Under the pieces are notes generated by a model, which worked only from the letters and a program-made list of their open reading frames with translations, did not search any database and was not told where the DNA came from. A program made the translations under genes and the position numbers. A DNA stretch of 64,000 bases, from positions 14,324-78,323 of the forward strand of contig DATLGO010000101.1 of NCBI GenBank assembly GCA_035540375.1, written 5' to 3'. Position 1 is the stretch's first letter, and each line of letters begins with the position of its first letter. The stretch is from Thermoplasmatota archaeon (GTDB taxonomy: Archaea; Thermoplasmatota; SW-10-69-26; JACQPN01; JAJPHT01). Positions 6,240 through 64,000 of this stretch are shown here, one piece after another.

Positions 6240-6288
6240 CGCGGTGGCGGATCCGAGGGACGGCATGAACGTTTCCCGCGCGCGTCGG

Positions 6289-7059: not shown

Positions 7060-7116
7060 ACGCCTTCATCGGGCCGCGGGCCAAAATCCTTGTGGAGGGA
7101 CGCGCCTCGCCGCGCC

Positions 7117-43066: not shown

Positions 43067-43250
43067 GCGGGGGACTCCGCGGCGAGGCCATTTGGCGGAG
43101 CGTTTTCACGTCGGCCGGAGGCGCGCCGTCCCAAAGCGTCACGGCGAAGGCGGGCGCGGCGGGCCCGCGCCGTCACCCCGAATGACGACAGACCGCCGAG
43201 CCCGCAAGGGCTATGACGGGGCCGGCGGGGAACCGAGGCCGGCAGGCTGC

Positions 43251-46411: not shown

Positions 46412-47389
46412 GTGTACGTCGACAAGGTCGCGGTCGTCGGCGCCGGAGCCATGGGCGCCGCCATCGCCGAGGTCATGGCGCTCAACGGCAAGAAGGTCGT
46501 CCTGAAGGACGTCTCCCAGGAATTCGTCGACCGCGGCCTCAAGACCATCGATGCGGTGCTCGATGATCTCGTGACCTTCCACGCCGGCAAGGCCGAAGCC
46601 GAGATCGAGCGGATCGAATCGAAGAACGGCATCACGCTCACCGAGGAGCAGAAGGCGAAGGTCCGCGAGGCGAACAAGGCGACCTACGACCGCGCCCGCG
46701 CCGACAAGATCCGCAGGAACATCCAGGGCACGACCTCGTACGACGACCTCGCGGACGTCGACTTCGTGATCGAGGCCGTCGTCGAGAAGATGCCCGTGAA
46801 GCAGCAGGTCTTCAAGGAGCTCGAAGCCGCGACCCAGAGCCACGTCGTGCTCGCGACCAACACGAGCACGCTGAGCATCACGGAGATCGCTTCCGCGGTG
46901 TCGGCGAAGCGCCGTCCGAAGGTGCTCGGCGCGCACTTCTTCAACCCGCCCTACACGCTGCCGCTCGTCGAGATCATCCCCGCCCACGAGACGAGCCCCG
47001 GCGTCGTCGAGGAGACCATCCAGTTCTTCGAGGAGCTGCGCAACCACCGCTTCCCGATGCTTCCGGTCGCCGTCAAGGAGACGCCGGGCTTCGTCGTGAA
47101 CCGCATCCTCGGGCGCGCGTTCAACGAGGCGTTCCTCGTCTACGAGGAGGGGATCGCCTCCCCGCGCGACATCGACAAGGCGATGAAGGCCGGCGCGGGT
47201 TGGCCGATGGGACCGCTCGAGCTCGCCGACCTCGTCGGGATCGACGTGCTCTACCACGCGGGCCGCAGCATGAAGGAGATGGGCGCGCCCGCCGAGCAGC
47301 GCCTGCCCCAGATCATCGGCAAGCTCTACCACTCGGGCCGCTGGGGAAAGAAGGTGGGTCGCGGGTTCTACGATTACAAGAACGAGTAG
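46412..47389 (+). CDS. hbd: 3-hydroxyacyl-CoA (3-hydroxybutyryl-CoA) dehydrogenase
   Basis: NAD-binding VAVVGAGAMGAAIA, catalytic region with …ATNTSTLSITEIA…, and a C-terminal dimerisation domain. Confidence 0.85.
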   Translation: MYVDKVAVVGAGAMGAAIAEVMALNGKKVVLKDVSQEFVDRGLKTIDAVLDDLVTFHAGKAEAEIERIESKNGITLTEEQKAKVREANKATYDRARADKIRRNIQGTTSYDDLADVDFVIEAVVEKMPVKQQVFKELEAATQSHVVLATNTSTLSITEIASAVSAKRRPKVLGAHFFNPPYTLPLVEIIPAHETSPGVVEETIQFFEELRNHRFPMLPVAVKETPGFVVNRILGRAFNEAFLVYEEGIASPRDIDKAMKAGAGWPMGPLELADLVGIDVLYHAGRSMKEMGAPAEQRLPQIIGKLYHSGRWGKKVGRGFYDYKNE

Positions 47390-47496
47390 GTCCCTCAACG
47401 GGCATAGTTGAGGACTGCGCGGGCACTCACAAGGTCCAGTGGACATAGGGATCGTGGTTGAGCCGTTTCCCCGACCGTCCCGCGGCCTCTGAACGG

Positions 47497-48552
47497 CTAG
47501 AACAGGTCCTCGAGCCCACCTTGGAGCTCTGACAGCCCGCCGCATTCAGGGCAGGAGCGTTCATATAGTTCCTCGGTGGCCTTTTCCACGAAGTGATAGA
47601 AGGCGTGATTGAATGCAAGCCCGCACGACTTGCACTCGTAGTCGAGCATGCGAGGTGAAGAATCGCTGATCTTGCGAGTCCGCCGCCCTCGAGAGGGGAC
47701 CGACCGCACAGGCCTTTCGTACTCGAGGCAAGAATGCGAACGCATGTCGCGTTTGGTATCGAATGTTTCACCGCAGCTGTCGCAAGTCGCCGGCTGGCTT
47801 GCCTCCCACTCCCTGTACGCGCGTTGCGCTTCGCGCTCGGAGATCACTGCGGGGCACGCTTGAATGTGGTCCGATAGGGTATCCTCCGAAGCCTGCGCTT
47901 TCCCGCACGCACTGCACGGGTAGTGGCGCTTCGAATAGTTGTGACCACGGAGACCGGCCTCCGAGTCGAACGTCTTTCCGCACAGATCACATGCAAACGA
48001 GGGAACATCCCACGGTTGCACTCGAGCGTCATCAACCTCCGCTTCGACGACCCCCGAGACCTGACGAGCGCCCTCCGCATCGGTTGCGCCTGTCCAGATG
48101 TGCCCGACCGGCTCGACATCATGTATTAGTGCGGGGAGGCTGGCCGCAGCGACACCCTCGGCTGGGGAAGAGCTTACCCCGGCCGGCAGCGCATATCGCG
48201 CCTCGCGCTCGGGCTGAGGACTGCCGAACCCGCACTGACGCGCATGATCATCCCGCCACACCTCTCTTGAGTATTTTGCGCCGCACCCGGGGTAAGGGCA
48301 GACCGAATCCGCCGCTGCCATGTTAACGGACTTAGTAGTGTACGATGGGATAGTGGAGTCCCCGCCCGGGAGGAACGTGTACCCCTTGTGCTTGATGAAG
48401 AGCCAAGGGATCCCGACGTAGAACGTGTAGAAGAACGCCCCAAAGAACGCTCCTGCGACTACGTTCGAATTGAGACTCGCGAGGGCGGGGATGGCAGAAA
48501 TGGCTGCGAAGAACCACTTGTAGCCGTTCCATAACTTGCCCATCTCACGCAC
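47497..48552 (-). CDS. membrane-anchored protein with ~5 C2H2/C2HC-type zinc-finger motifs
   Basis: Two N-terminal TM helices; fingers CPYPGCGAKYSREVWRDDHARQC, CDLCGKTFDSEAGLRGHNYSKRH, CSACGKAQASEDTLSDHIQAC, CDSCGETFDTKRDMRSHSC and CKSCGLAFNHAFYHF, plus CPECGG. Confidence 0.55.
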   Translation of the reverse strand: MREMGKLWNGYKWFFAAISAIPALASLNSNVVAGAFFGAFFYTFYVGIPWLFIKHKGYTFLPGGDSTIPSYTTKSVNMAAADSVCPYPGCGAKYSREVWRDDHARQCGFGSPQPEREARYALPAGVSSSPAEGVAAASLPALIHDVEPVGHIWTGATDAEGARQVSGVVEAEVDDARVQPWDVPSFACDLCGKTFDSEAGLRGHNYSKRHYPCSACGKAQASEDTLSDHIQACPAVISEREAQRAYREWEASQPATCDSCGETFDTKRDMRSHSCLEYERPVRSVPSRGRRTRKISDSSPRMLDYECKSCGLAFNHAFYHFVEKATEELYERSCPECGGLSELQGGLEDLF

Positions 48553-48634
48553 CCCCTCCCCCTAACTGAACCTTGAATATGTAAGCTTGTCCGAAAACTT
48601 GCGTGGGTGTCATCGTTGCCTCGACCCAAGCAGC

Positions 48635-49021
48635 TCACGTTGCAGCGAGCATGACGGACGCGAGTGGCCTTCCCTGGCCCCGATATGCGCTCCGGCGTTC
48701 CTCGGCGAGAGGGTAGCTCGTAATAACCGTCACGAGCTCTCGATCGATCGCAACGACGAAGACGCCGTCCTGCCCAGCGACGTCCACGACCGCGTGCCAC
48801 GCGCCGGCTGGCGCAGGAAAGTAGCGAGCGTGGAGCAGCTTCTGGCGAATCTGCCCTTCGGTCAACCCCGCCCCTTGCCAGCGGGTTGCAGCACGGAATC
48901 GCGCGTGCATCGTCAGGACTACTGCCAGGCTCGCAAAGATTTCGACACTCCAATGGATCGAGGCGAGGTCCCCGAGTGTGGCGACACTCGCGTTGCGGGG
49001 TTCTCGGCGCATACGACTCAC
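48635..49021 (-). CDS. hypothetical protein (weak resemblance to DUF4258-type small toxin domains)
   Basis: …HARYFPAPAGAWHAVVDVAGQDGVFVVAIDRELVTVITSYPL…. Assignment is tentative. Confidence 0.35.
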   Translation of the reverse strand: MSRMRREPRNASVATLGDLASIHWSVEIFASLAVVLTMHARFRAATRWQGAGLTEGQIRQKLLHARYFPAPAGAWHAVVDVAGQDGVFVVAIDRELVTVITSYPLAEERRSAYRGQGRPLASVMLAAT

Positions 49022-50197
49022 CTAAGCGGTACGCCTGCGGTGGCGCGCGACCGCGATGATCGACACCGCAGCGAGCGTGAGGACCAGCACGACGATCAGG
49101 TTGCGCGCGAAGTGCTCGGGAGACATTGCCGTGTCCCCCCAGCACCAACCCCCCGAGCACGGCTGCGTGTTGGAGAGCGTCAAGGCGTTGGTCACGGGCT
49201 CAGTTGTCACAGTCTCGTTTGTGACGGGCGCCCGCCCGTTCGTTCGCTCGCCGGTGAAGAACGGCAGCAATCCAGAGACGTCTTCACCCTCGATGCGGTC
49301 GTACTTGTCGCCGCTGTGATCTTGGAGATCTTGCGTGTACTGGCCCGTCAGCACCTCGGCCTGAACAGTGACGGTCTCTGTGTGCTGCTCGACGCGGTGC
49401 TTGCTCGCCGCGGCCTGGATGATCGGCGGCGTACCGCGCGTGTATCCGCCGTTCGGGCTGCTGCCGGTTGCAAAATCGAGCTCACTCCACTGGTACGCGT
49501 AATTCGAGCCGTTCGGCATGGCGAGCCGGCCTCGCCACACGATCTGCGGAGGGAGGTGATCAAGCTCCAGGACGGCGTAGGCGACGCCCGGCGCGTCCGA
49601 CTGGATGGGGGCGGAGGTCGAGTTCAGCAGCGCACCCTTCGCAGCTTGGGTCCCGCTCCAAGCCTGCAACTCCACGGTCGCTCCTGAAAGGTTCACGCCG
49701 GGGGCCGGCGAAAACAGCAGAGTCAGGGTGTCCGAGCTCCACCCGCGGTTGAAGAGCATCAAGTCTTGGCCGCTCGGGCGGATCGGACTCGCGGTAGGCC
49801 ACGACAGAGAGATGGTGCGCCAAATGAGCCGCCCATCCTGCATGGGTTCAGGGGCGCCAGATATGCTCAGCGCGGGCGCTCCGCGAACGCTGATGATCGC
49901 GGTCAGAACGCCGGCCGCCAGCCCACCAGCATCATCCGGAAGGGTTCCGGTCGCCGTGATCCCTTGCAGCGAGGCGGAGCCCTTGTCCGAGGTAACGCTC
50001 TGCGTGACGCTTCCGACGGAAGCGCCGTTGCGCTCCAAGGTAAGCGTGATGGGCGTAGCAGAGTCGTTCGAGAGGACGACGAGATCCTTCAACGTGACGC
50101 TGAGGTAGACCGGTGCGGCTGTGGTGGTTTGCGCTTGTGCGGGCATGCTCGCAGCGAGCATGAGCAGGATCGAAAGAGTGGGGATGTAGCTCTTCAT
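49022..50197 (-). CDS. secreted Thr/Ser-rich surface protein with a C-terminal TM anchor
   Basis: Signal peptide MKSYIPTLSILLMLAASMPAQA; C-terminal …LIVVLVLTLAAVSIIAVARHRRRTA. 4-nt overlap with the upstream gene. Confidence 0.5.
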   Translation of the reverse strand: MKSYIPTLSILLMLAASMPAQAQTTTAAPVYLSVTLKDLVVLSNDSATPITLTLERNGASVGSVTQSVTSDKGSASLQGITATGTLPDDAGGLAAGVLTAIISVRGAPALSISGAPEPMQDGRLIWRTISLSWPTASPIRPSGQDLMLFNRGWSSDTLTLLFSPAPGVNLSGATVELQAWSGTQAAKGALLNSTSAPIQSDAPGVAYAVLELDHLPPQIVWRGRLAMPNGSNYAYQWSELDFATGSSPNGGYTRGTPPIIQAAASKHRVEQHTETVTVQAEVLTGQYTQDLQDHSGDKYDRIEGEDVSGLLPFFTGERTNGRAPVTNETVTTEPVTNALTLSNTQPCSGGWCWGDTAMSPEHFARNLIVVLVLTLAAVSIIAVARHRRRTA

Positions 50198-50955
50198 GCG
50201 TTTGCCTCCGTGTGCTTGTTGATGTCTTCTGTTAGGCGGCGCTGCCACGTGCGGAACTCCTTCCGGCGGGCGACGCCTTCGTACGTGTCGACGAAGAGGT
50301 GGAGCGGAAATTCCAGGAGCGGAACGATGGACGGGCCGGCGTCGGACGGCTTCGACTCGTCGACGTGGCACCAGGTGACCCACCTGTCCGGCTTGTAGAG
50401 CGAGACGATCGAGCGCACGTGCTCGTTGAACATCCGCTCTCCCTCGCCGGGGCCAGTGACGCCCGCAAATGCCATCACATGCCCCGCGAGGCTCTGTACC
50501 GGCAGGTATCCCCCGACCGTATTTTTCAGGCCGAGCTCTTGGATCTCCTCCTGCGCAAGCATGACGTCCGAGATCGTGCGCTCGTGGAAGGCGATGAAGA
50601 GCGGCGTGTTAAGGCCGAGGTAGCTCGGCGTCTCAGCGGCGCCCTTGCTTCCATCTGCGTTCGAGTCCGCCATCGCCGCGTAGAGCACCTCAAGGATCGG
50701 TCCTTCGACCGCGTCCAACTGCTCCGGAAGCCAAGTGGGGTTCGCGACGATCTGGATGATCGCGCGAGGGTGCTGCGAGAGAAGGCTGGACAGGCAATCC
50801 TGCGTCGTCTGCTGTCTCGTGACGATTGCCCCATCGCCCTTGGAAGGGATTGGGGTGTTGGCCTTGGTCCCGGGCGGCAGGCCTTGAGGCTTCGGCGCGG
50901 TGCGGAGCCGAGCAACGGCTTCGAAGTCATTTGCCTTCGACGTGGAACGGCTCAC
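50194..50955 (-). CDS. hypothetical protein
   Basis: 253 aa of mixed composition; 4-nt overlaps on both sides, consistent with an operon. Confidence 0.45.
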   Translation of the reverse strand: MSRSTSKANDFEAVARLRTAPKPQGLPPGTKANTPIPSKGDGAIVTRQQTTQDCLSSLLSQHPRAIIQIVANPTWLPEQLDAVEGPILEVLYAAMADSNADGSKGAAETPSYLGLNTPLFIAFHERTISDVMLAQEEIQELGLKNTVGGYLPVQSLAGHVMAFAGVTGPGEGERMFNEHVRSIVSLYKPDRWVTWCHVDESKPSDAGPSIVPLLEFPLHLFVDTYEGVARRKEFRTWQRRLTEDINKHTEANA

Positions 50956-51752
50956 GGGACCACCGCCACGAGAGGAGCAGGGTCCGAGCTCTCGCCGCGG
51001 TCATCGCGGGCAGCAGCCAGGCGGTCGCGGGCCTCCTGGTAGAGGAACTGGCTATTCAGCGCCTCGACGAGCTGAGTAGGCGCGCGGCCGTTGACGATGC
51101 CGAAGACCTGCTTGTTCGTGAACGCGGAGTGAAGCTGATTCACGACGTTCGCGTTCGTGAGGCCGTCGATGCTCGCATGGATGACGACGCGCTGAGTGGC
51201 GTCCGCGAACTTGACGATCGGTTCGTGATAATCGCGGGCAGCTCCTTCATGGAGATTGCGCGTCGGTCCGGGCTTCTCACCAGGACGGACTCCCCAGAGC
51301 TCCAGTCGGAGAGGGCTCCACCAGCGGCGAACGCGGATCGCGCGGTTTCCAGGGGCACCGTTGACGGGGAGGACGCCCGCAAGTTGGACTTTCCCGCGGA
51401 GCTTCTTGCCCATCCCCTGCAGATGCCGTTCGAGCCATTGAAGATGGTTCCCTCCGTCGACTATGGTCAACCCGCGCGAAGCGGGCTGGCCGGTGAGGTA
51501 GCGGTCGTAGATGATCCAGATGGTGATCCCCAGAAGCGCAGCCGACCCCCACTCCGCTGCAAGCGTAACCCAGGTCTGGCCGCTCGGGCCGAGCCCCTCG
51601 TAGACGCTGACAAAGGGGGCTGTTAGCTTCTCGAAGTTCTCAGCGACCCAATAGGTGGTGGGCGCGACGATCGCCACCAACAGGACTGCCAGCGCGATGA
51701 TGCGGGCGCGACCCTTCGGGCGGCTCCACGACGTCTTCACATTGTGCAACAT
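50952..51752 (-). CDS. hypothetical membrane protein (first gene of the minus-strand island operon)
   Basis: Two N-terminal TM helices followed by a soluble domain. Confidence 0.45.
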   Translation of the reverse strand: MLHNVKTSWSRPKGRARIIALAVLLVAIVAPTTYWVAENFEKLTAPFVSVYEGLGPSGQTWVTLAAEWGSAALLGITIWIIYDRYLTGQPASRGLTIVDGGNHLQWLERHLQGMGKKLRGKVQLAGVLPVNGAPGNRAIRVRRWWSPLRLELWGVRPGEKPGPTRNLHEGAARDYHEPIVKFADATQRVVIHASIDGLTNANVVNQLHSAFTNKQVFGIVNGRAPTQLVEALNSQFLYQEARDRLAAARDDRGESSDPAPLVAVVP

Positions 51753-51988
51753 GGTATTTCCTCAGCAGCCTCATGTCGTCATGTGCTGCTGGTCGGGAGA
51801 TTGCCTTCGAGAGCATCTTCTGCTTGGCCCTGAGTCACCTATTCTAAAAAGAGCAACGTCCGCCTTGAGTAGGTGCCTACCCTGATCGTACGCCACTCTC
51901 CAGTCGGTAGGCTTGTTCCTATTGAGAATCACTGTTACGAGAATTGTTTTATCCTTCAAACGCCGCTCATCGGTTCGGGAGACAGTAA
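51753..51988. promoter_or_regulatory. AT-rich divergent intergenic region between the two island operons
   Basis: Contains ctattctaaaaagag, gaattgttttatcc, and inverted repeat CAGCAGC-n15-GCTGCTG at 51766-51794 next to the minus-gene start. Confidence 0.35.
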
Positions 51989-52777
51989 GTGGCAGACGAA
52001 CCGGTTCAGGGAGAGGACCGCGGACTCGCGCGGCGTATGCACCGCGACTTTCCCTTCGTCGCTCCAGAAGCCGCACGTGAGCTTGCCATTCGACTCCGTA
52101 AGTCCTCAGTCCCTCGTCCGGACGAAGACCGGCGTCTCGCTCTCGTCCAATTGCTCGGGGATCCGTACCGGGCAAGGCTCATGTCCTTCCTACTGGGCAA
52201 GGCGGAACTCCCGGGCCTGCAGAAGCTTGAGGTCGCCACCACAACCGTTTGGGCGGCCGACATCGCCTCGCTTAGCGCAGGTGTTTTCGGAAGAATCCCG
52301 AACGAGGCTGACCTGCACAAGAGCCTCGTCCAAGTCCTCACATCCTCTCAAATGAAGCACGTTGTCTCGAAAGCGATCGTCCGCGCGCGCGTTCGCATCG
52401 ACGGGGTCGGGGACCCCGAGAACGAAAAGGACGAGCGGAAGAAGCAGCTTCTGAAGGACAAGCTCCGACAAATTAAGGAAACCGCCGACGAGCGAGCCAA
52501 TGAGCGAGTCCCAAAGTTTGCTGCTAAACCGGAGTACGTGAACGCGGTACTGCGCCGAGTCCCGCGGGAAATCGAAGGCGCGTGTTACAAGCAGCTTTGG
52601 GAGCTAAAGCGGGCCGGACTGGTTGACGAGCGATCGAGCCGCTCCGGCGACAGCCTCTGGTACGTCCGACCAGAAGCCGTCGCTGAGCTCGAGGCATTCT
52701 ATACCGCACTCGCGAACCTATCAGGCACCGTACAGCCGGCGCTGTCCACCCGACGAAACTGGAGGAAAGAGCCATGA
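51989..52777 (+). CDS. hypothetical protein with a C-terminal winged-helix-like segment (first gene of plus-strand island operon)
   Basis: …GACYKQLWELKRAGLVDERSSRSGDSLWYVRPEAV… resembles a wHTH. Low-GC codon usage. Start uncertain. Confidence 0.45.
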   Translation: MADEPVQGEDRGLARRMHRDFPFVAPEAARELAIRLRKSSVPRPDEDRRLALVQLLGDPYRARLMSFLLGKAELPGLQKLEVATTTVWAADIASLSAGVFGRIPNEADLHKSLVQVLTSSQMKHVVSKAIVRARVRIDGVGDPENEKDERKKQLLKDKLRQIKETADERANERVPKFAAKPEYVNAVLRRVPREIEGACYKQLWELKRAGLVDERSSRSGDSLWYVRPEAVAELEAFYTALANLSGTVQPALSTRRNWRKEP

Positions 52778-54807
52778 CCGAAGACTTGTTCGCAGCACGC
52801 TGCGCCAAGCTACGCGATCTGACCGAGCAGCTTCGGCGGCTCGTTTCGACTATAGAGGCACTTCGTCCAAACGGCCTCCCAGCCGACTCCGAGGACTTCG
52901 CCCTCACCGGGACCCTTCGAGAGGCCACGCATGAAAACGAGCACTTCCTCCAAGTCAATGATCCGCTTACCCAAGACGCGAAAATGAGTCGGCTTCCGTG
53001 GGCAAAAACACGTCGCGAGCGAGAACTCGCCGAGAATATCGCGGCCACGAACGCAGCGATCATCAAGAGTGAGAAACTAATCGCCGCCGCCCAAAAGGGA
53101 ATTCGCAGACATCTGGAAAGGACTGAAGCCAGGATTGCCAACGCCGCCCGGACCCTCGAGCGGTCCGAGCAAGTCGTACCTGGCTCGCGCTGTGTCCCGC
53201 AACTAAAGGAAACGCTCGAGGCCGCCGCGAACGCTGCACGCCGCGTTCGCGAGGGACACGGAGACGTGGGGGAGTTGGCGCACCTCACAAGCCGAGTCAC
53301 CGAAGGAGTTTCCGGCCTCGATGCCGCCCTCACACTAATCGAGCTCACTCGCTCCGACGCAGCGAAGACCCCCGACCCTCTCGGTGCTGGTCAACGCTTC
53401 CTCGACACGCGGCTCGCGCGTCTACAAGCAGATTCCACGCCGGACGAGCTCCGTGCGAGCGCGACTTCACTCGAAGCCAGTTGGCGAACGGTGAAGGCCG
53501 ATTTCCTGCCGATTCTCACCCGATCCGACGCGGCGGCAGCTCACGCGATCACTGCGGTCGAGTCGCTACCAGGATCGCTCACCGACAACCTGCGCGAGAC
53601 TGCCCTCGCGCTCGCGAGGGAAGTAAAGGCGTTCGACCTCCAGAGTTTCAAACTGAAGAGCGCCCTCGCGACCGCGGAGTGGCTCGACGAAGCCGCGCGG
53701 CAAGCCCCACGCATCAGCGTCATTGCGAACGTCCCAGGCATCGAAGCGTCTCCGGAGTGGCGTACCCTGACGCGCGTCCTCGCCTCTCGCCACCCGCCAG
53801 CCGAAATTGAAGACGCCGTCCGCAAAGCCGAGGACCGGGCAGCGACCATCCAACGGAACTCTGCCGCGGAGCTGCAATTCAAAACAATCCTTGTTAGAGA
53901 ATCCGTGCCGAACGAGTTGGCGAAGGCGGTCGAATCGACAATCGTGCGTCTTTGGGCCCAATTTCCGGAAGCGACGAAAAGCGATGATGCCCAGTTGATT
54001 GAACCGATTTTCAGGGAGATTATTTCGAGCGCTCGCGAGGGCAAGGCATTCCTCATCGAACACGGGGTCGGCCAGTATGCGCCGAACCTGTTCGAAAGCA
54101 TGAACACCTTGCTTGAGCGCCTTCCACACGTTCGGGTGGGAGAAGCGCGGTCCATCTTGAACCGCATGAAGGAGCGAGTTCAACCTCTGCTTGAACTGGA
54201 TCTCGCCAAACGAAAGTTCGCGGCGATTGAGCGCGGCGTGAATAATGACATCTTCATCCAGATCGAAAATGGCATCCTGTCAGGTATCGACATCCAGGAT
54301 ATCCGAGTTGCAACAGAAGCTCTGGTTAAGCTCGCTGACCGATTCGCCAAAGCGCCGCCAGAAATGCTCGCCGAAGAGGAAGGTCGACGGGGCCTCGTCC
54401 GCGCCAACCTCAGCCCCACCCAGCGGAAGAACAGATACCTTTCCGCTCTGATCGAGAACACGCTTCCTGTATTAGCGCGTGACCCGGAACAACCTAAGCG
54501 GAACCGCGACTCGGACCGCGACCGGTTTATAGAGAAAACCTTCCCGATCTACTTCGATCGGGAGGTTCTCGCGGCATGTGTCGGCGCTCGCGGCCCGGCG
54601 GAGTTCGACGCTACCCTCATTCGCGCTCATTCCATCGGCTACGAGCAGTTTAGAGATCGGTTCTACTTCCACCGTGGCCGCGCACGAGCACAGTTCGCAA
54701 AGAACGGGCCTGACTCCGACGCGATCAAGAACCGGCTACGTAAGGAGTTTAGCATCCTCGACTACGAAGCCCTCCAAGAGTGGATCAACGAAGGTGAACC
54801 CAAGTGA
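52774..54807 (+). CDS. large (677 aa) predominantly alpha-helical hypothetical protein
   Basis: ATGA overlap with the upstream gene; no recognisable motifs; heptad-like charged helices. Confidence 0.5.
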   Translation: MTEDLFAARCAKLRDLTEQLRRLVSTIEALRPNGLPADSEDFALTGTLREATHENEHFLQVNDPLTQDAKMSRLPWAKTRRERELAENIAATNAAIIKSEKLIAAAQKGIRRHLERTEARIANAARTLERSEQVVPGSRCVPQLKETLEAAANAARRVREGHGDVGELAHLTSRVTEGVSGLDAALTLIELTRSDAAKTPDPLGAGQRFLDTRLARLQADSTPDELRASATSLEASWRTVKADFLPILTRSDAAAAHAITAVESLPGSLTDNLRETALALAREVKAFDLQSFKLKSALATAEWLDEAARQAPRISVIANVPGIEASPEWRTLTRVLASRHPPAEIEDAVRKAEDRAATIQRNSAAELQFKTILVRESVPNELAKAVESTIVRLWAQFPEATKSDDAQLIEPIFREIISSAREGKAFLIEHGVGQYAPNLFESMNTLLERLPHVRVGEARSILNRMKERVQPLLELDLAKRKFAAIERGVNNDIFIQIENGILSGIDIQDIRVATEALVKLADRFAKAPPEMLAEEEGRRGLVRANLSPTQRKNRYLSALIENTLPVLARDPEQPKRNRDSDRDRFIEKTFPIYFDREVLAACVGARGPAEFDATLIRAHSIGYEQFRDRFYFHRGRARAQFAKNGPDSDAIKNRLRKEFSILDYEALQEWINEGEPK

Positions 54808-56222
54808 CGCATAACGCCGTCATCATGATCGGCCACGGCGGCATTGGCCCAGGCCTTGAGTTCCTCAAGATCATCGACGAGGAACGCAAGCTCGCTGAGA
54901 AGACCGAAACCCAGTTCGTTGACACTTTCTTCCACGAGCTCGATTCGAAAGAAGCTACAAACGAAGGCATTGCCGAACTGGGCGGGACCGTGGTCCCCCG
55001 AGCGGTCGTATTCGATGCTTCCCACCAGACGCGCGTCAAACTGAAGAAGCAAATCAGGGATCAACAGATTCCCTACGTCCGCATCAGAGACCTCGGCCTG
55101 TTGACTCGAGGTTCCGAAAACCAGTGGTGGCTGGGATATCGCATTGCCGCCTTGCAGTTCGGCCCCTGGCTCGAGAACGCCCTCGGAAGTGGGCCGTCGG
55201 GTTGGGAGAACGTTCAGAACTTCCACATCTTCCACAGCACTGGCGGAGGAACTGGCTCTGGCGCATCCTCGTACGTTGCCGAGAAGATCCGTGAACTCCG
55301 GCCAGAGTCTAGAATTCTGTGCTACTCAGTCCTACCATCAGCATACGACGACGTGCACGGGGCCCCCCCACTCGCGCATTACAATACGATTCTGTCCCTC
55401 TCAACCCTGACAGGGCGCCAGCGACCCGAGTTCCTGCCCGACTTTCTCAGGACCGCAACAACCAGCAAAAAGGCAGCAGACCAGGTCGAACTGCCAAAGG
55501 TCGGGAAGCGGCGGCCGGCTGATCTCATCTTCGTGTTCCAAAACGAGGCCTTGGCAGGCGTGAACTCGTTGGTCACCCGCAAAGTCTCCGACAACCTGGG
55601 CGAGCTCAATACGATGATTGGCCGCTACGCATCGCATGTGACCTCGTGTGCGAGGTTTCCCGGCCCGCCGGGTTTCGATGATGAACGCGATATTGGAGAC
55701 ATTGTGACGTGCCTCCTTCGAAAGCCCCAACCATTCGTCATGGCAGCCGCGGCACCCATCGTCCCCGAGTATGAGAAAACCGACGACTCGTCGGTAACGG
55801 AACTCGTTGAGTATGCGCTGAGTTCCATCTATAGCCTGTCCGGGCGTGCTCTATCCCCCGGGGAAGTCGACAGTCTGTACGTCGGCGCCCGAGGCGATGT
55901 GACCCGTGACGAGATGGGAGTTGTTGTTGCAGACGCGCGCTCGCATTTAGGGGTCGGGAAGGAAGTGAAGGTCCCTTTTAACGGCTGCGTGCAACCTTCA
56001 CCCGGCGCCACGCGCGAACTCTGGCTCGCCGCGAATTGTCGGAGCATTGGTCACCTTCTCGGCGAGCTCACCGAGGAAGCCCAGAAGGAGTATGTTGCCG
56101 GCGACCACTCCGATCTCGTCACCGTCGCTATGGAATGGAAGGAACTTGATAGCGTCCTCACTACGTTCCAGGGATTCGCAACCTCTATCCAAAGGGGGGA
56201 ATTGGGACGCCGGCGCAGCTAA
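54804..56222 (+). CDS. divergent tubulin/FtsZ-superfamily GTPase
   Basis: Exact tubulin signature FHSTGGGTGSGASSYVAEKI (T4 loop); glycine-rich N-terminus VIMIGHGGIGPGLEF (T1-like); AVVFDASHQ (T2/NTDxQ-like); LAHYNTILSL (T6-like). No canonical T7 NxDxxD/E. 4-nt overlap with the upstream gene. Confidence 0.6.
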   Translation: MTHNAVIMIGHGGIGPGLEFLKIIDEERKLAEKTETQFVDTFFHELDSKEATNEGIAELGGTVVPRAVVFDASHQTRVKLKKQIRDQQIPYVRIRDLGLLTRGSENQWWLGYRIAALQFGPWLENALGSGPSGWENVQNFHIFHSTGGGTGSGASSYVAEKIRELRPESRILCYSVLPSAYDDVHGAPPLAHYNTILSLSTLTGRQRPEFLPDFLRTATTSKKAADQVELPKVGKRRPADLIFVFQNEALAGVNSLVTRKVSDNLGELNTMIGRYASHVTSCARFPGPPGFDDERDIGDIVTCLLRKPQPFVMAAAAPIVPEYEKTDDSSVTELVEYALSSIYSLSGRALSPGEVDSLYVGARGDVTRDEMGVVVADARSHLGVGKEVKVPFNGCVQPSPGATRELWLAANCRSIGHLLGELTEEAQKEYVAGDHSDLVTVAMEWKELDSVLTTFQGFATSIQRGELGRRRS

Positions 56223-56287
56223 ACGATGATGCGGAGCGGACACTCGACGCTATTAGGCTCGAACGAATCCTAATCGGCGCACTCGCT

Positions 56288-57721
56288 TTGCCGACCCCCT
56301 ATACGTCAATTGGGGACATCGCCACGATCCAATGGGATTTCCTCCTATCTCAATCTCCGAAAGCGATCTCTGCCTCCCGATTGGTAACCCTTAGAAGACG
56401 CGCGAAGTGGAAAATGCGACAGCCTTTCGCGCGGAGGAAGAGGCGCGTGCAACGAGCTCTCGAGTTCTTCACGCCCGCCGTTCGGAATGAGTTTGTGAAA
56501 CAGGGCATAGAAATCGCCGCCCGCATCCTCGGCGCCGAACCGACGTCGCTGCCCCCGGATCTGGAGTTTCGAACCTCAAGTACAATTCGGGAGGAGATCG
56601 CTGCATATCGTAAGGGCTCCCCTAAGCGATGGGCCTCGATCGCCGCACTACGACTCGTCAGCATCGGCGCCAAGGTCCAAATGGAGCGCAGTCGCCCAAG
56701 AGCCGGCGCGAGCTCCAGCAGTGCACAAGTTGAAGGAGAGCTCGTTCGGGCGCAGAAGGCGCACGCAGTTGTAACAAGCGAACTCGCGCGCGTACAGAAC
56801 CTGTATGCAAGCCTCCGTACACAGCACGACGCATTGTGCAGGGTGACTGCGGATGCGCTTCGAGCCCTTGCTCCGGGCGGTCCATGGCAAGACCCGAACG
56901 ACCTCCCAGACGCCGCGCGCCAAGTGCGCAGCGATCTCGAAACGACGACAAGCGAGTTGCAAAGCACGCGAATCCGCCTTTCGGAAACGGATCTGAAGCG
57001 CCAACGTCTCGAGGAAGACCTCCGTCGTAAGGAGGATGCGGCGCGCGCTGCGGCACGTGCACTCGCGGAAGTCAACATCCGCGTTCCGAATGCCGAACAA
57101 GGTATCGAGGCGATTAACGCAGAATTGATGCGCGTGGCATCGGAGGCGCGACAGGCTCGCGGGTGGGCGCCAACGGATCTCGCTGCGTCTATCCGTCCGT
57201 TCATCGCCTTTCACGCCTCCGCCACCAACGCGGACCTTCAGCTCTTACGCTCGGATCTTTCGTTATGGCTCGATCGCGACGTTCAACATGGCCGGCGCCA
57301 GTATGCCTTGTTCGCTCCATTCGCACGCGTTCTCCTACTCTTGCTGGATGAAGCAATGAAGAGTAACGACGCCGCATTAATTGAGACCGTCCGGGCGACC
57401 GCGGCACAGTTCGCGAACATCGAGGCCGATAGCACGCAATTTCTGGGCGGCCGCCCCCCCGAGGAATGGGGATTTACCACTGATGCTATTGCCGTCGCAG
57501 CATTGGGCAGGCCGGGCAGCGTGAAAGAAGTGGAACGTGCGTGCACGGAACTGCGAATGGCGGGAATTTCAGACTTCTTTGACGCGTGGCTTGCGGAGAT
57601 CGAGAAGGTCGAAATGACCAGCGCGGCTGGGCAACGCACTGCTGGCGCCCTTGCACGCGTCGAGCTCGCGCTCCTCGCGCTTCCAAGCGTCCAGAAATAC
57701 GCCCGACGAGGGCTAGGGTAA
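56288..57721 (+). CDS. hypothetical coiled-coil protein (477 aa)
   Basis: Long helical, heptad-rich central region (…LQSTRIRLSETDLKRQRLEEDLRRKEDAARAAARALAEV…). Confidence 0.45.
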   Translation: MPTPYTSIGDIATIQWDFLLSQSPKAISASRLVTLRRRAKWKMRQPFARRKRRVQRALEFFTPAVRNEFVKQGIEIAARILGAEPTSLPPDLEFRTSSTIREEIAAYRKGSPKRWASIAALRLVSIGAKVQMERSRPRAGASSSSAQVEGELVRAQKAHAVVTSELARVQNLYASLRTQHDALCRVTADALRALAPGGPWQDPNDLPDAARQVRSDLETTTSELQSTRIRLSETDLKRQRLEEDLRRKEDAARAAARALAEVNIRVPNAEQGIEAINAELMRVASEARQARGWAPTDLAASIRPFIAFHASATNADLQLLRSDLSLWLDRDVQHGRRQYALFAPFARVLLLLLDEAMKSNDAALIETVRATAAQFANIEADSTQFLGGRPPEEWGFTTDAIAVAALGRPGSVKEVERACTELRMAGISDFFDAWLAEIEKVEMTSAAGQRTAGALARVELALLALPSVQKYARRGLG

Positions 57722-57734
57722 GGAGGGAACGGAC

Positions 57735-58184
57735 ATGGCAGCACAGAACACATCAAGAGACGCATCGAAAACACTTGGACGCGGAGTCCTGATCATGGCG
57801 GGTGTCGCGATCGTACTCCTCATCGGCGCGGCGACTGGCCTCCTCGTCATCCCGAATATCTTTGGTAACTGGTTCACGGACGTCAATGCGGCGCTTCGCT
57901 TCCTGATGTTCTTCGAAATCATCGTATTTATCGCCGGCTGTATCGGCTTCTACTACCTCGCAAATCGGTTCCGGCGCGTGTGGGCTGACGCGGAACTCCT
58001 CCGACTACAGCAGAAGGAAGCGACGATCCGAGTCCAAGAGGCTTTGTCCGCCTTCCAACAGGCCATGAAGGAACTCGAAGCCGCCCGTCATCAACGTCCC
58101 GACCGGCCAGCGGAGATTTCGCCCCTTGCCCCCCGCGTCGGGGCGCTCGAAGCGGCGCTGGCTGAGCTCCGAGCGAAGATCTAA
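57735..58184 (+). CDS. small membrane protein with a C-terminal coiled coil
   Basis: Two TM helices (…VLIMAGVAIVLLIGAATGLLVIP… and FLMFFEIIVFIAGCIGFYYL), then a helical tail. Confidence 0.45.
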   Translation: MAAQNTSRDASKTLGRGVLIMAGVAIVLLIGAATGLLVIPNIFGNWFTDVNAALRFLMFFEIIVFIAGCIGFYYLANRFRRVWADAELLRLQQKEATIRVQEALSAFQQAMKELEAARHQRPDRPAEISPLAPRVGALEAALAELRAKI

Positions 58185-58189
58185 CCACG

Positions 58190-58356
58190 TCGAAGCGCAC
58201 GGTCGCGATCGAAGTCTGACCCGCCTCGTTGCCGGCTTCGAAGGTGGCCGTCACCTCGCCCGCCGAGCGATAGACGTGCTCGAAGGTGGGCGAGGCCTGC
58301 CAGGACGTCGCCTCACCGTCTCCCCACGCGGCGCGCCATTTCGTCGCGGGACCCAT
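58190..58356 (-). pseudogene. remnant of a PKD-domain protein gene at the right edge of the island
   Basis: Minus-strand translation gives …WGDGEATSWQASPTFEHVYRSAGEVTATFEAGNEAGQTSIATVRFDVV (PKD C-terminal pattern). The upstream frame is junk, so the gene is truncated. Confidence 0.25.
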
Positions 58357-58519
58357 GGCTCCGGGACGGGTCGGAAGATCGACGCGGACGTTCGCACCGG
58401 GGGCGGGATAGCGCGAGCCGACGGTCGCCTCGTGCGCGATCGAGGCTCCGGTGCGCGTACGATTGCCGTGTCGCTGCAGAATCTCGATTCCGAGGCGGAT
58501 CTCACGACCCTTGAACCCT

Positions 58520-59512
58520 TTACCCGGTTTTCCCGAAGGCCGGAACGACGCCCACGTAATCCTGGCTCTGACCGTATGCGCCGCCGCGGTTCCCGGTGCA
58601 CTCGACCGAACCCCATCGCAGGAGAACGCACGTACCGCCCCCGCCCGCGCTCACGGCGACCGCGTCGGAGCCGGCGTAGTCCTCGGCGGGGTCGTGGGCG
58701 CCATAACAGTGGATCCGGCCGGAGGCGACGAGCACGCACGTATGGAGACCGCCGGCGCTCACCGCGATCGCATCGCCGCCGAGGTAGTCCCCGACCTGTC
58801 CGTACGGGCCCGACCCGCGGCAGTCGACGTTGCCGGACCGAAGGAGGATGCAGGTGTAGGCGTTCGCCGCGCTGATGGCCACGGCGTCGCCGCCCAGGTA
58901 ATCGTCGCCCTCGCCCCAGCGGTTCGAGCCCCAGCAATCGACGTTTCCCGAGGCGAGGAGCGCGCACGTGTGCGACGCGCCGAGGCTCACGGCGACCGCG
59001 TCGCCCCCTTGGTAGGGTTCGGACTTGCCATCGTGATTGTGTCCCCAGCAGCGCACGTTGCCCGCATCCGTGAGAACGCACGTGTGGTTGCTCGCCGCAT
59101 CGATGGCGACCGCGTCGCCTCCGACGTCATCCTCCGAGGCGCCCTGACGCCACGCCCCGAAGCAGTCGACGTGGCCGCTTCGAAGCAGGATGCACGCGTA
59201 ATGCGCGCCCGCGCTCACGGCGACGGCATCCCCTTCGGAACGATCCTGCGTCTGCCCATAGGCGCTGTAACCATAGCAGTCCACGTCGCCGCTTGCGAGG
59301 AGGACGCAGGTGCTGTGGGACCCGACGGACACCGCGGTCGCCGCGAAGGCGCCCACGCAGATCTGGCCGTCCGACGGCGGAAGCCCGAGGAACGGACCGT
59401 TCGCGCCCTCGACGTAGTCCAACCGGCACACCGAGAGCGTCTCGGGGCTCGCGCCTCCGACCGGCATGAAGGCGGGCGCGACGAGCACGAGGACCGCGGC
59501 GAGTCGGAGCAT
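58520..59512 (-). CDS. secreted RCC1-repeat beta-propeller protein
   Basis: Signal peptide MLRLAAVLVLVAPAFMPVGGASP. At least six repeats of the RCC1 type (…GGDAVAVSxGxxHTCxLLxSGNVDCWGxN…GQ…). Confidence 0.7.
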   Translation of the reverse strand: MLRLAAVLVLVAPAFMPVGGASPETLSVCRLDYVEGANGPFLGLPPSDGQICVGAFAATAVSVGSHSTCVLLASGDVDCYGYSAYGQTQDRSEGDAVAVSAGAHYACILLRSGHVDCFGAWRQGASEDDVGGDAVAIDAASNHTCVLTDAGNVRCWGHNHDGKSEPYQGGDAVAVSLGASHTCALLASGNVDCWGSNRWGEGDDYLGGDAVAISAANAYTCILLRSGNVDCRGSGPYGQVGDYLGGDAIAVSAGGLHTCVLVASGRIHCYGAHDPAEDYAGSDAVAVSAGGGGTCVLLRWGSVECTGNRGGAYGQSQDYVGVVPAFGKTG

Positions 59513-59684
59513 GCAACCCCGCCCATCCACGGCGAAGGGCGCGGATGAGCTTTGCCGGGACAGGGTCTTTCGCGACCCGTCGACGTTTTCGTCGTCCCGT
59601 CGTCGCGACCGCTCCGGGTTTTTACTCCCGGGAGGCGTCCCGAAGCGAAAGTGGTTATGTACCCGCGGGCGCCTCATCCGCCCC

Positions 59685-60479
59685 ATGGCCGACTTCAAGC
59701 TCATCAAGACGAAGCTCGAGGACAACAACGCCATCGGCGTCCTCACGCTCAACGCGCCCCCCGTGAATGCGCTCTCGATCACGCTCCTCAAGGAGATCCA
59801 GGCCGCCCTCGACGAGTTCCAGAAGGCCAAGGTCCGCGCGGTCGTCGTCACGGCCGCGGGCAACAACGCCTTCTGCGCCGGCGCGGACGTGAAGGAGATG
59901 GCCTCGCTCGAGAAGGACCCCGCGAAGGCCGGCGAGTTCCTCGGCCTCGGCAACGAGGTCTTCAACAAGATCGAGAACTTCAACGCCCCCGTCATCGCGG
60001 CCATCAACAACCTGACGCTCGGCGGCGGCCTTGAGCTCGCGCTCGCATGCGACGTCCGCATCTCCTCCGACCGCGCGCGCTTCGGCCTCCCCGAAGTGAG
60101 CCTCGGCCTCATCCCCGCCTGGGGCGGCATCGCGCGCCTTCCGCGCCTCATCGGCGTGGGCCGCGCGAAGGAGCTCATCTTCACCGGCCAGCTCGTGAAC
60201 GCCCAGGAGGCGAAGACACTCGGCATCCTCAACAAGGTCGTCCCGGACGGCGACGAGCTGCGCGCCGCGATGGACATCGCGAAGCGCATCAGCGTCAAGT
60301 CGAGCCCGGTCGCGGTCGCCGCCGCGAAGCGCGCGATCAACGCGGGCATGGGGGAGACGATCGACGTCGCCCTCGCCGCGAGCGAGAAGGAGATGGGCGA
60401 GGTCATGACGAGCGAGGATCTGCGCGAAGGCATCAAGGCGTTCACGGAGAAGCGCCAGCCGAGCTTCAAGGGGCAGTGA
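59685..60479 (+). CDS. enoyl-CoA hydratase (crotonase family)
   Basis: …AVVVTAAGNNAFCAGADVKEM… and …LTLGGGLELALACDVRISS… oxyanion-hole and catalytic segments. Confidence 0.85.
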   Translation: MADFKLIKTKLEDNNAIGVLTLNAPPVNALSITLLKEIQAALDEFQKAKVRAVVVTAAGNNAFCAGADVKEMASLEKDPAKAGEFLGLGNEVFNKIENFNAPVIAAINNLTLGGGLELALACDVRISSDRARFGLPEVSLGLIPAWGGIARLPRLIGVGRAKELIFTGQLVNAQEAKTLGILNKVVPDGDELRAAMDIAKRISVKSSPVAVAAAKRAINAGMGETIDVALAASEKEMGEVMTSEDLREGIKAFTEKRQPSFKGQ

Positions 60480-62678: not shown

Positions 62679-64000
62679 TTGTCCCGCAAGGAAGTCTCCA
62701 TCCGCATCGGCGGCGCAGCCGGCGACGGCGTCGCGTCGACCGGTGAGATCTTCGGCAAGACGTGCGCCCGCTCCGGCCTGCACGTGTACGCGTACAACAG
62801 CTACCAGTCGGTCATCCGCGGGGGCCACGTGTGGTTCCAGATCCGCGCGGGCGCCGATCGCGTGCTTTCCGTCGGCCAGAACGTCGGCATCCTCATTGCC
62901 CTCAACCAGCAGACCTACGACGCCCACGTCGGCTCGATCGAGTCCGGCGGCGGCGTCATCTTCGACCCGAAGAAGGTCAAGGCGGACGAGACGAAGCTTC
63001 CGAAGGGCGTGCGCGCCTTCCCGATGCCCGCGCTCGAAATCGCGGCGAAGTACTCGAAGAACCCGATCATGGCGAACACCGTGATGCTCGGCGCCGCGAT
63101 GCAGTTCATCGCCGCGCCCATCGCGAAGTTCAAGAGCGTCATCGAGGACCAGTTCGGCCACAAGAAGCAGGAGATCATCTCCCAGAACCTCGAGGCCGCT
63201 CAGGCCGGCTGGGACTACGCCAAGGAACACTGGGGTCGCCTCGACTACGTCCTCGGGTGGAGCGACAAGCGCCGCCTCTTCATGACCGGCAACCAGGCGA
63301 TCGCGCTCGGCGCGCTCGCCGCGGGCTGCAAGTTCTACGCCTTCTACCCGATGACGCCCGCGTCGTCGATCGGCCACTTCCTCGCGGACCACGGCCCCGA
63401 CAACGGGATGGTCGTGAAGCAGGCCGAGGACGAGATCGCGGTCATCAACATGACGATCGGCGCGGCCTACGCGGGCGCGCGGTCGATGTGCGGCACGTCG
63501 GGCGGCGGCTTCTCGCTCATGGTCGAGGCCACGGGCTTCGCGGGCATCACGGAGACGCCGATCGTCGTCGTGAACTCGCAGCGCTCGGGCCCCTCGACCG
63601 GCCTTCCCACGAAGACCGAGCAGGGCGACCTCAACCTCATCATGGGCGCGGGCCAGGGCGACTGGCCCCGCATCATCCTCGCGCCCCGCAACGTCGAGGA
63701 GGCGTTCCACGCGACCGCCGAGGCCTTCAACCTCGCCGAGCGCTGGCAGACGCCCGTCTTCGTCCTCTCGGACCTCCTCCTCTCGGAGCACTTCGAGACG
63801 GTCGACGGCCTCGACCTCGAGTCGGTCGCGATCGACCGCGGCGCGCTCATCACGAACGGCTCGGTCCCGACGCCCTACCTCCGCTACGAACTCACGGAGA
63901 ACGGCGTCTCGCCCCGCGCGATCCCGGGCATGGCCGGCGCGGAGCACATCGCGGGCTCGGACGAGCACGACGAGGACGGCACGCTCGTCTCGGACGTGCG
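62679..64000 (+). CDS. 2-oxoacid:ferredoxin oxidoreductase, fused gamma-alpha subunit (3' end outside the window)
   Basis: Gamma domain (…IRIGGAAGDGVASTGEIFGKTCARSGLHVYAYNSYQSVIRGGHVWFQIRA…) then alpha domain (…FYAFYPMTPASSIGHFLADH…GTSGGGFSLMVEA…VVVNSQRSGPSTGLPTKTEQGDL…). It is not in the ORF track because it runs off the window end. Confidence 0.8.
   Translation, partial: MSRKEVSIRIGGAAGDGVASTGEIFGKTCARSGLHVYAYNSYQSVIRGGHVWFQIRAGADRVLSVGQNVGILIALNQQTYDAHVGSIESGGGVIFDPKKVKADETKLPKGVRAFPMPALEIAAKYSKNPIMANTVMLGAAMQFIAAPIAKFKSVIEDQFGHKKQEIISQNLEAAQAGWDYAKEHWGRLDYVLGWSDKRRLFMTGNQAIALGALAAGCKFYAFYPMTPASSIGHFLADHGPDNGMVVKQAEDEIAVINMTIGAAYAGARSMCGTSGGGFSLMVEATGFAGITETPIVVVNSQRSGPSTGLPTKTEQGDLNLIMGAGQGDWPRIILAPRNVEEAFHATAEAFNLAERWQTPVFVLSDLLLSEHFETVDGLDLESVAIDRGALITNGSVPTPYLRYELTENGVSPRAIPGMAGAEHIAGSDEHDEDGTLVSDV

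Follow-up and report, generated by a model that had tools for sequence, protein, structure and literature searches.

The subject of this study is a 64,000-nt stretch of a Thermoplasmatota genome (contig DATLGO010000101.1, positions 14,324 to 78,323; hereafter the window), in which the third gene of a five-gene operon codes for a protein of 472 amino acid residues (aa). We conclude that the 472-aa protein is a complete tubulin, closer to tubulin proper (the Odin, Btub, Asgard and eukaryotic tubulins) than to FtsZ, CetZ or TubZ, and we hold with high confidence that it represents a genuine tubulin-proper-like GTPase of a new family, predicted to be probably active. Both its sequence and its predicted fold are more similar to those of the tubulins than to those of FtsZ, CetZ or TubZ.

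Sequence, predicted fold and relatives of the 472-aa tubulin

The gene and its landmarks are the following.

54804..56222, plus strand: gene 3, coding for the 472-aa tubulin-type GTPase (NCBI HVL49388.1)
55242..55262, plus strand: T4 signature GGGTGSG, residues 147-153, invariant or nearly so across 65 tubulin-family sequences
55683..55700, plus strand: T7 loop E294-R-D296-I-G-D299, placed by alignments with tubulins and FtsZ
56043..56195, plus strand: C-terminal helices H11 (residues 414-432) and H12 (445-464), placed by alignment with the Odin, Btub and eukaryotic tubulins and by the secondary structure of the AlphaFold2 (AF2) model

The open reading frame (ORF) was found where the original prediction had located it, starting with a GTG that overlaps the stop codon of the upstream gene and is preceded by AGGTGA. 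Some gene callers start it at ATG 54825 and give a product of 465 aa; the longer form is supported by the homologs and by the S1 strand. In NCBI, HVL49388.1 is labelled 'tubulin-like domain-containing protein [Candidatus Thermoplasmatota archaeon]'. With the Pfam Tubulin profile PF00091, the 472-aa protein scored 61.6 bits against a cut-off of 33 (E 1.6e-16, residues 6-202), and its relatives scored 70.3 and 47.2 bits. As this score lies above the cut-off, the GGGTGSG signature, which had already been recognised at this place, is not a chance match within a glycine-rich protein, and the proposed membership in the tubulin/FtsZ superfamily holds. After phmmer comparison with all PDB sequences, OdinTubulin (7EVB) was the best match (E 7e-22), aligned over the two stretches 6-202 and 237-419, and the top 60 matches were tubulins exclusively. 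A hidden Markov model (HMM) built from three family members detected OdinTubulin at 8e-37, BtubB at 3e-33 and AtubA at 3e-29. On the single scale of this family HMM, tubulins of every class gave 71-123 bits, and E. coli FtsZ gave 5.5 bits (E=59).

The nucleotide-contacting loops are in good agreement with this assignment. The T1-like segment GHGGIGPG, the segment RAVVFDAS at the T2 position and VLPSAYDD at the T5 position, all noticed in the original prediction, match the corresponding tubulin loops in the alignment. The contact residues N106 (T3), GGGTGSG (T4), D182 (T5), and N247 and N269 (H7) are invariant in the family; N106, D182, N247 and N269 align with tubulin N101, D179, N206 and N228, respectively. 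The T7 loop, which had been described as absent, is present: ERD296-IG-D299 aligns column by column, so that E294-x-D296-x-x-D299 corresponds to N249-x-D251-x-x-E254 of tubulin and to N207-x-D209-x-x-D212 of FtsZ in an alignment of more than 60 tubulins and E. coli FtsZ. All three family members have R295, D296 and D299, and from this invariance together with the alignment D299 stands at the catalytic position (D212 of FtsZ, E254 of alpha-tubulin). The residue at this position of alpha-tubulin is Glu254; in the alignment, the position is occupied by Glu in Odin-like and BtubA-like sequences and by Lys in beta-tubulin. Catalytic competence is predicted from the invariant GTP-contact and T7 residues. 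Other canonical tubulin motifs occur in modified form, that is, GSENQWWLGY, FQNEAL and ARFPGP…ERDIGD for the canonical GxGNNWA, xDNEAL and LRFPGxLNxDL, and an insertion between H5 and S6 is specific to the family.

The tubulin C-terminal domain had likewise been reported as lacking, but it was found: residues 237-419 match the activation domain of OdinTubulin by phmmer (i-Evalue 5e-6), and helices H11 and H12, the hallmark of tubulin proper, are present in both the alignment and the model. The M-loop region is of near-tubulin length, being 2-5 residues shorter than that of beta-tubulin and variable within the family. The protein ends with a short basic tail, GRRRS, and the acidic E-hook is absent; short basic tails end two of the three family tubulins.

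For structure prediction, the AF2 model was built from the 65-sequence alignment, since AF2 with the single sequence gave a pLDDT of 36.6 and was unusable. The model of the 472-aa protein (pLDDT 85.4, pTM 0.91) shows a two-domain fold with the GTPase domain, helix H7 and the activation domain. The top Foldseek match of this model was OdinTubulin (E 1.5e-25, TMt 0.85), and in the fold comparison CetZ (31-33), FtsZ (29), TubZ (22-24) and PhuZ (~21) came behind the tubulins. Against the AF2 model, the viral models of BFVD reached a TM score of 0.4-0.5 at most. The tubulin fold suspected from the signature was thus recovered by AF2 and Foldseek with OdinTubulin first, and the T7-equivalent acidic residues are in place.

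Members of the family are extremely rare: exhaustive HMMER scanning of 1.84 billion representative proteins identified two close relatives, P0002 (2e-55) and P0003 (4e-43), both at 36% identity, while the following matches were ordinary tubulins with E 9e-18 or weaker. The family members are mutually 29-36% identical and their distribution is very patchy, with three or four clusters among all these representatives. A few further assemblies of this organism contain identical or near-identical copies of HVL49388.1, and word-indexed homolog searches returned self or near-self matches only. No tubulin relative was found by profile scans of GTDB species genomes, JGI metagenome contigs and IMG/VR, nor by tblastn against 72,556 plasmids (PLSDB) and 50,697 GenBank phages. 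In a rough neighbour-joining (NJ) tree of 34 sequences and 420 columns, rooted with E. coli FtsZ and not including CetZ, TubZ or verified artubulins, the family is monophyletic with a support of 80/100 and falls among the tubulins. Pairwise identity between the family and tubulins is 18-26%, in comparison with 23-33% among the established tubulin classes. The AT-rich metagenomic cluster P0009, for which the artubulin label is unverified, was detected at E 4e-11 and grouped with the family in 0/100.

Two further tubulin-like proteins deserve description beside the family. P0050 (439 aa; L005:18-1642, JGI 3300044687) is encoded on a 1.6-kb contig with a guanine plus cytosine (GC) content of 74%. 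As it carries the H5-S6 insertion and reaches 115 bits against the family HMM, it is probably a more distant family member. T4 has the sequence AAGTGSG, and T7, with D-L-G-N, is without the second acidic residue; P0050 may represent a branch of the family that is non-catalytic or more distant. The gene after P0050 overlaps it by 4 nt and encodes an Ala/Lys-rich, coiled-coil-like product. The Bathyarchaeota tubulin-like protein P0013/P0170 (434 aa, MBT4422911.1, metagenome-assembled genome GCA_018701795.1), unrelated to that of the window, is found at the loci L006:1-6293 and L007:1-6844, within a same-strand cluster in the order AAA ATPase, 182 aa, 440 aa, tubulin and 606 aa [the last with a transmembrane (TM) segment and a coiled coil]. 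The stop of this tubulin gene overlaps the next gene by 4 nt, and its partners are not homologous to those in the window. It is probably the 'single Bathyarchaeia tubulin' of a 2026 preprint, and its assembly on three independent contigs argues against contamination.

The operon and its conserved partner genes

The five ORFs from 51989 to 58184 on the plus strand form an operon, as had been proposed. In addition to the tubulin gene, its elements are the following.

51947..51954, plus strand: candidate archaeal TATA box TTTTATCC, read from the sequence
51989..52777, plus strand: gene 1, 262-aa basic protein with a net charge of +9; ORF with a 4-nt overlap with gene 2
52774..54807, plus strand: gene 2, 677-aa orphan rich in Ala, Arg, Leu and Glu, without TM segment; GGAGG before the ATG
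56288..57721, plus strand: gene 4, 477-aa coiled-coil protein starting at TTG 56288 (435 aa from ATG 56414)
57735..58184, plus strand: gene 5, 149-aa two-TM protein with a C-terminal coiled coil; AGGAGG before the ATG

The TTTTAT box is located about 40 nt upstream of the gene 1 start, within a divergent intergenic region of 236 nt. The 4-nt coupling described for the whole operon stands for the first three genes (ATGA at 52774 and GTGA at 54804), but not for gene 4, which is separated from the tubulin stop by 65 nt (from TTG 56288) or 191 nt (from ATG 56414), nor for the last pair, genes 4 and 5 being 13 nt apart. Shine-Dalgarno-like motifs precede the 677-aa gene (GGAGG), the tubulin gene (AGGTGA) and the 149-aa gene (AGGAGG).

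None of the partner proteins matched a family in Pfam, NCBIfam, PHROG, PADLOC or PDB, in agreement with the original description of partners without recognisable family. For the 262-aa protein, for which one caller gives an alternative ATG start and a product of 246 aa, no match beyond noise was found in Pfam, NCBIfam or PDB. The winged helix-turn-helix (HTH) tail once assigned to it could not be recovered, as no HTH was detected even with fragments at E<=10; very weak ArsR-like matches were observed at residues 52-74 (E 0.06-0.1). The 677-aa protein is presumed to be helical from its composition. The 477-aa protein carries a central coiled coil (~117-291) and a conserved C-terminal domain (~236-470), and its central part matches only the coiled-coil regions of SMC and DndD. 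Other callers give gene 4 as 435 aa on the plus strand. The public annotation places a 284-aa minus-strand gene at 56350-57204 inside this ORF. The GC content at codon positions 1, 2 and 3 is 0.67/0.51/0.64 for the 477-aa plus-strand ORF, similar to its neighbours, and 0.53/0.67/0.63 for the minus-strand ORF; we rejected the minus-strand call as spurious, because its GC is highest at position 2 and because the plus-strand product is homologous to a 444-aa protein at the locus L003 described below. In the 149-aa protein, the TM helices are predicted at ~20-38 and ~52-70.

Comparison with L003, the 10-kb contig that carries P0003, indicates that four genes are conserved as a cassette, encoding a ~700-aa protein, the tubulin, a ~450-aa coiled-coil protein and a two-TM coiled-coil protein. 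The gene order on L003 is 510 aa, 704 aa, tubulin of 447 aa, 444 aa, 172 aa, AAA ATPase of 379 aa, and a 512-aa polytopic membrane protein. Homology is clear between the 477-aa and 444-aa proteins (BLASTP 2e-18, phmmer 7e-20, shuffle z=27) and between the 149-aa and 172-aa proteins (BLASTP 6e-12, phmmer 7e-14, shuffle z=21). The last two share the arrangement of two predicted TM helices with a conserved PxxFGxWF in between, followed by a coiled coil. The 677-aa and 704-aa proteins align collinearly (8-535 with 7-521), with a Smith-Waterman score of 131 against 53.5+/-9.0 for shuffles (z=8.6, 0/200); this homology was not significant by BLASTP or phmmer and was missed by hhalign. No counterpart of the 262-aa gene 1 was found in L003. 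TM helices occur in two of the three conserved partner families, at one locus at least for each. Four of the five genes thus recur at a second locus, in the same order and with homologous partners; the original prediction had suggested a search for the five-gene neighbourhood. Profile searches with the partners, including GTDB, JGI metagenomes and IMG/VR, returned the same loci only. The other close relative, P0002, is encoded on a 2.4-kb contig (L002), where a gene overlaps it at either end. Of these flanking fragments, the downstream one is marginally similar to the 477-aa protein (z=4.0), and for the upstream one no similarity was seen.

On L003 (7461-10135), the module is directly followed by the AAA ATPase, a single-domain classic AAA, and the 512-aa polytopic membrane protein. 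The best PDB matches of this AAA ATPase are the D2 domains of Cdc48/VCP (1e-73), with katanin MEI-1 at 2e-44, and it is related to the AAA adjoining the Bathyarchaeota tubulin (E 1e-26). An assignment of the AAA ATPases and small helical proteins at L003 and at the Bathyarchaeota loci as MIT/Vps4 and Snf7-like was considered and rejected, as it had no support from Pfam and the closest PDB match was Cdc48/VCP D2. The AAA gene is absent from the window island.

The low-GC3 island and its host surroundings

The operon occupies one side of an island of about 11 kb, which was recognised by the contrast in GC content at the third codon position (GC3).

47390..58400, no strand: low-GC3 island of ~11 kb, boundaries approximate, from GC and GC3
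47497..51752, minus strand: divergent island genes (ORFs), a cluster of orphans coding for 266, 253, 391, 125-128 and 351 aa

The genes within 47497-58184 have a GC3 of 0.67-0.79 (0.70-0.82 as given for the divergent cluster alone), against 0.85-0.95 for host genes, in good agreement with the foreign origin first proposed for the island; the overall GC is 0.57-0.65 inside and ~0.72 outside. The island is flanked by the host gene for 3-hydroxyacyl-CoA dehydrogenase (46412-47389) on one side and by host genes for an RCC1-repeat protein and enoyl-CoA hydratase on the other. The same context was found in the same-species contigs L001, L008, L009 and L010, which come from separate runs and assemblies. 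Replication genes, phage genes, and plasmid, defence and partition signatures were not found in the island, and neither iterons, tandem repeats nor a centromere-like array was found in the 236-nt divergent region. Among the products of the divergent cluster, the 266-aa protein has an N-terminal TM, the 391-aa protein has a signal peptide, a Thr-rich linker and a C-terminal TM anchor, and the 351-aa protein carries C2H2 and zinc-ribbon motifs. The 351-aa protein is the sole island protein with a PHROG match and the sole protein of the divergent cluster with a Pfam match; no homologs of the divergent-cluster proteins were found in L003.

The host is assigned to the archaea by its NCBI label and by the presence of a Trm5/TYW2-type tRNA methyltransferase, encoded at 6214-8139. 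The Trm5/TYW2-type enzyme is the archaeal and eukaryotic counterpart of bacterial TrmD.

Several observations concern the host DNA around the island. At 58520-60479, the minus-strand ORF of a 649-aa RCC1 protein (four PF13540 repeats) and the plus-strand ORF of enoyl-CoA hydratase (59466-60479) overlap; in the public calls the two are trimmed to 330 aa and 264 aa, respectively. The RCC1 blades are visible as internal periodic repeats of 114 nt at 58628-59314. A 79-nt tRNA-Gln(CTG) with its anticodon at position 38 was predicted by ARAGORN at 62838-62916 on the minus strand, below the Rfam tRNA gathering score; this may be a false positive, or else an archaeal tRNA of atypical form or with an intron. 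The host genes in the ranges 31069-33285(+), 36698-43066(-) and 26565-28841(+) encode an HTH-AAA_16-TPR (STAND-like) regulator, two large surface proteins with PKD and CBM60, and a 758-aa protein; the last gives a weak match to a MADS2-type defence methyltransferase (E 8e-7, far under the cut-off). In the segment 42906-46129, with a GC content of 0.76-0.80, several long ORFs of both strands overlap one another. TrmB-family HTH domains lie there in two plus-strand frames, 42906-44921 and 43394-46072, with uncertain gene boundaries.

A proposed membrane-coupled filament, its alternatives and its meaning

We propose a mechanism in which a single tubulin would bind GTP via loops T1-T6 and assemble head-to-tail into homopolymeric protofilaments. 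The T7 loop (D296 and D299) of one subunit would complete the GTPase site of its neighbour, giving a dynamic cytomotive filament. The co-transcribed partners may tether or organise this filament at the cytoplasmic membrane, with the two-TM protein as putative anchor, the coiled-coil protein as putative adaptor, and the ~700-aa protein as a regulator or bundler resembling a microtubule-associated protein (MAP). The cellular role could be membrane or cell-shape remodelling, or positioning. In this scheme, we infer polymerisation, GTPase activity, the roles of the partners, membrane attachment and the cellular role. A membrane-tethered cytomotive filament as such seems to us quite possible, if a little short of probable; the combined reading of an active tubulin of a new family and a membrane-tethered filament on a horizontally acquired cassette we regard as reasonably probable. 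Among the three candidate readings offered in the original prediction, a previously undescribed archaeal cytomotive system fits best.

A number of observations weigh against this combined reading. The T1 loop is atypical, GHGGIGPG in place of GQCGNQ, with a family-invariant His at the position of Gln11 and without N14 and Q15; the Glu of T2 is replaced (D71-A-S73 for D-L-E), and the Asn position of T7 is Glu or Gln in the family. The Tubulin_C profile PF03953 was not matched by the 472-aa protein at E<=1, and the C-terminal domain was nonetheless found by the phmmer comparison with OdinTubulin given above. The alignment used for AF2 is dominated by tubulins and biases the fold ranking toward tubulin; as the model rests on a tubulin-rich alignment, the sequence-only profile checks matter, and their scores agree with the ranking. 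In the NJ tree, the position inside the tubulin clade is tentative, the neighbours of the family (Bathyarchaeota P0013/P0170, P0050 and the Odin-like sequence) being supported at 24-33%. As for the cassette, the full module is visible at two loci only, the flanks on L002 being too short and divergent to tell; the 444-aa protein of L003 has an N-terminal TM helix and the 477-aa protein of the window is without one; and the putative functions of the partners were assigned from TM and coiled-coil content. As for mobility, neither an integrase, a tRNA target nor att-like flanking repeats were found for the island.

Among other explanations, a mini-microtubule of the BtubAB/AtubAB kind, that is, a hollow tube of multiple protofilaments with dynamic instability and BtubC/MAP-like partners, is unlikely in our estimate. 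The nearest proteins by sequence and fold do form tubules or mini-microtubules (OdinTubulin, BtubA/B, AtubA/B; properties in PMC13394414 and PMC9871819), and the protein has H11/H12 as well as an M-loop region close to the tubulin length. However, each locus (the window and L003) carries one tubulin gene and no A/B pair, and a homopolymer is suggested by the T7 loop, which is predicted to be catalytic. In addition, the M-loop varies within the family and falls 2-5 residues short of that of beta-tubulin, identity to microtubule-forming tubulins is 18-26%, no BtubC/TPR-like partner is encoded in the window, and OdinTubulin itself forms tubules of curved protofilaments and not true microtubules (PMC9871819). 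Less probable still is DNA segregation of the TubZRC/PhuZ style (type III) by an integrated plasmid or provirus, in which the 262-aa protein would be a TubR-like centromere-binding adaptor and the filament would move DNA. This could account for the foreign low-GC3 island, the basic gene 1 product (+9) with its very weak ArsR-like matches (E 0.06-0.1), and the basic tails on two of the three family tubulins. TubZ binds the TubR-DNA complex by a flexible C-terminal tail. Yet the island is chromosomal, located between host metabolic genes, and the searches of plasmids, phages and IMG/VR were empty; PHROG matched nothing in the island save the zinc finger, and no integrase, replication gene, att repeats or iteron/centromere array was found. 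It is the TM and coiled-coil partners that have a counterpart in L003, and not the 262-aa gene, in which an HTH was undetected, and the fold ranking places TubZ (22-24) and PhuZ (~21) behind. This segregation machinery, one of the original candidates, is not supported in view of the absence of plasmid or phage relatives and of upstream iterons, and of the lack of gene 1 conservation in L003.

The remaining two alternatives are both very improbable. Assignment to the FtsZl (Tubulin_2) membrane-remodelling family, another of the original candidates, or to CetZ is largely refuted. PF13809 is matched by the window protein at its threshold (27.5 bits against 27) and the partners are membrane-associated, but this match covers residues 133-254 only and falls to 18 and 17 bits in the relatives, below the cut-off, and PF00091 gives 47-70 bits across the family; moreover, the top 60 PDB matches are all tubulins and the tubulin-type H11/H12 are present. 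Nearest similarity to CetZ together with a CetZ-type C-terminus was not found for the 472-aa protein. A decaying remnant of horizontal gene transfer, or a contaminating or mis-binned fragment without dedicated function, would be compatible with the extreme patchiness and the atypical T1 and T2 loops, and contamination has been raised as a caveat for the single Bathyarchaeia tubulin (10.64898/2026.02.15.705738). Against this reading, the ORFs are intact and coupled with Shine-Dalgarno-like motifs ahead, the nucleotide-contact and T7 residues are kept at 29-36% identity, and the synteny of four genes is kept across very divergent loci; moreover, at least four contigs of independent assembly (L001, L008, L009 and L010) contain the host-flanked island.

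The membrane-coupled single-tubulin system proposed here should be compared with those already described. A 2023 survey restricted prokaryotic tubulins to Odinarchaeota and Prosthecobacter, with artubulins, 'Asg.Tub' and 'Halo.Tub' being more distant (PMC9871819). The Asgard AtubA/B/C were then reported in 2026, and the AtubAB heterodimer, encoded by a tandem pair, assembles into mini-microtubules of four protofilaments (PMC13394414). The work of 2026 includes a single long-branch Bathyarchaeia tubulin and does not mention Thermoplasmatota (PMC13394414; 10.64898/2026.02.15.705738), and the accession HVL49388 was found in none of the papers searched. OdinTubulin (7EVB) resembles the new family in having a single tubulin gene per locus, but its identity is ~25%, its T1 is GQGGNQ against GHGG here, the H5-S6 insertion belongs to the new family, its host is an Odinarchaeote while ours is a Thermoplasmatota archaeon with an acquired island, and the conserved partner genes are wholly different. 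BtubA/BtubB of Prosthecobacter (~22-25% identity) make a heterodimer with the TPR protein BtubC, whereas a single tubulin is found here with presumed helical, coiled-coil and TM partners. In contrast to the tandem pair of Asgard AtubA/B/C (Lokiarchaeum, Heimdallarchaeia), the new family is single-gene, non-Asgard and far more divergent. Artubulins and the Bathyarchaeia tubulin are likewise long-branch, patchy, non-Asgard and seemingly inserted or transferred (PMC3349469). With the family HMM, the Bathyarchaeota P0013 reaches 116 bits, and in the tree it groups loosely with the new family. Artubulins of Nitrosoarchaeum neighbour Snf7 (PMC3349469), but no Snf7 was found by Pfam in the window island, and the new family differs from both artubulins and Bathyarchaeia tubulins by its own H5-S6 insertion and T1 motif and by its monophyly (80/100). 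What the system has in common with TubZ/TubR/tubC and PhuZ is a superfamily filament, putative here, whose gene lies on acquired DNA and shares a small operon with genes of accessory proteins. The likeness to FtsZ (with its anchors FtsA, ZipA and SepF) and to CetZ lies in the proposed GTP-driven homopolymer, in which T7 would activate the next subunit and the filament would be membrane-tethered.

The fold and the general principle are thus already known, and it is the family, the host lineage and the partner cassette that are undescribed. Few relatives of tubulin proper are known from prokaryotes (BtubAB, OdinTubulin, AtubABC, artubulins and one from Bathyarchaeia), and they are central to the debate on the origin of microtubules (PMC9871819, PMC13394414, PMC3349469). 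The addition of a deeply divergent Thermoplasmatota family extends the range over which tubulin proper is known, and the finding supports the horizontal mobility of tubulin cassettes among archaea. It also gives a functional context to three orphan protein families and offers a tractable four-protein system for the study of filament-membrane coupling and of accessory proteins outside eukaryotes. Only tentatively do we suggest that the operon represents an independent, non-Asgard archaeal lineage of true tubulin, carried by a self-contained and horizontally transferable cassette with three dedicated partners (MAP-like protein, adaptor and anchor). If true, this would be a minimal case of a membrane-coupled system with a single tubulin and accessory proteins of its own, and, together with the Bathyarchaeia and artubulin branches, it would mean that tubulin proper diversified and moved among archaea well beyond the lineage that led to eukaryotes.

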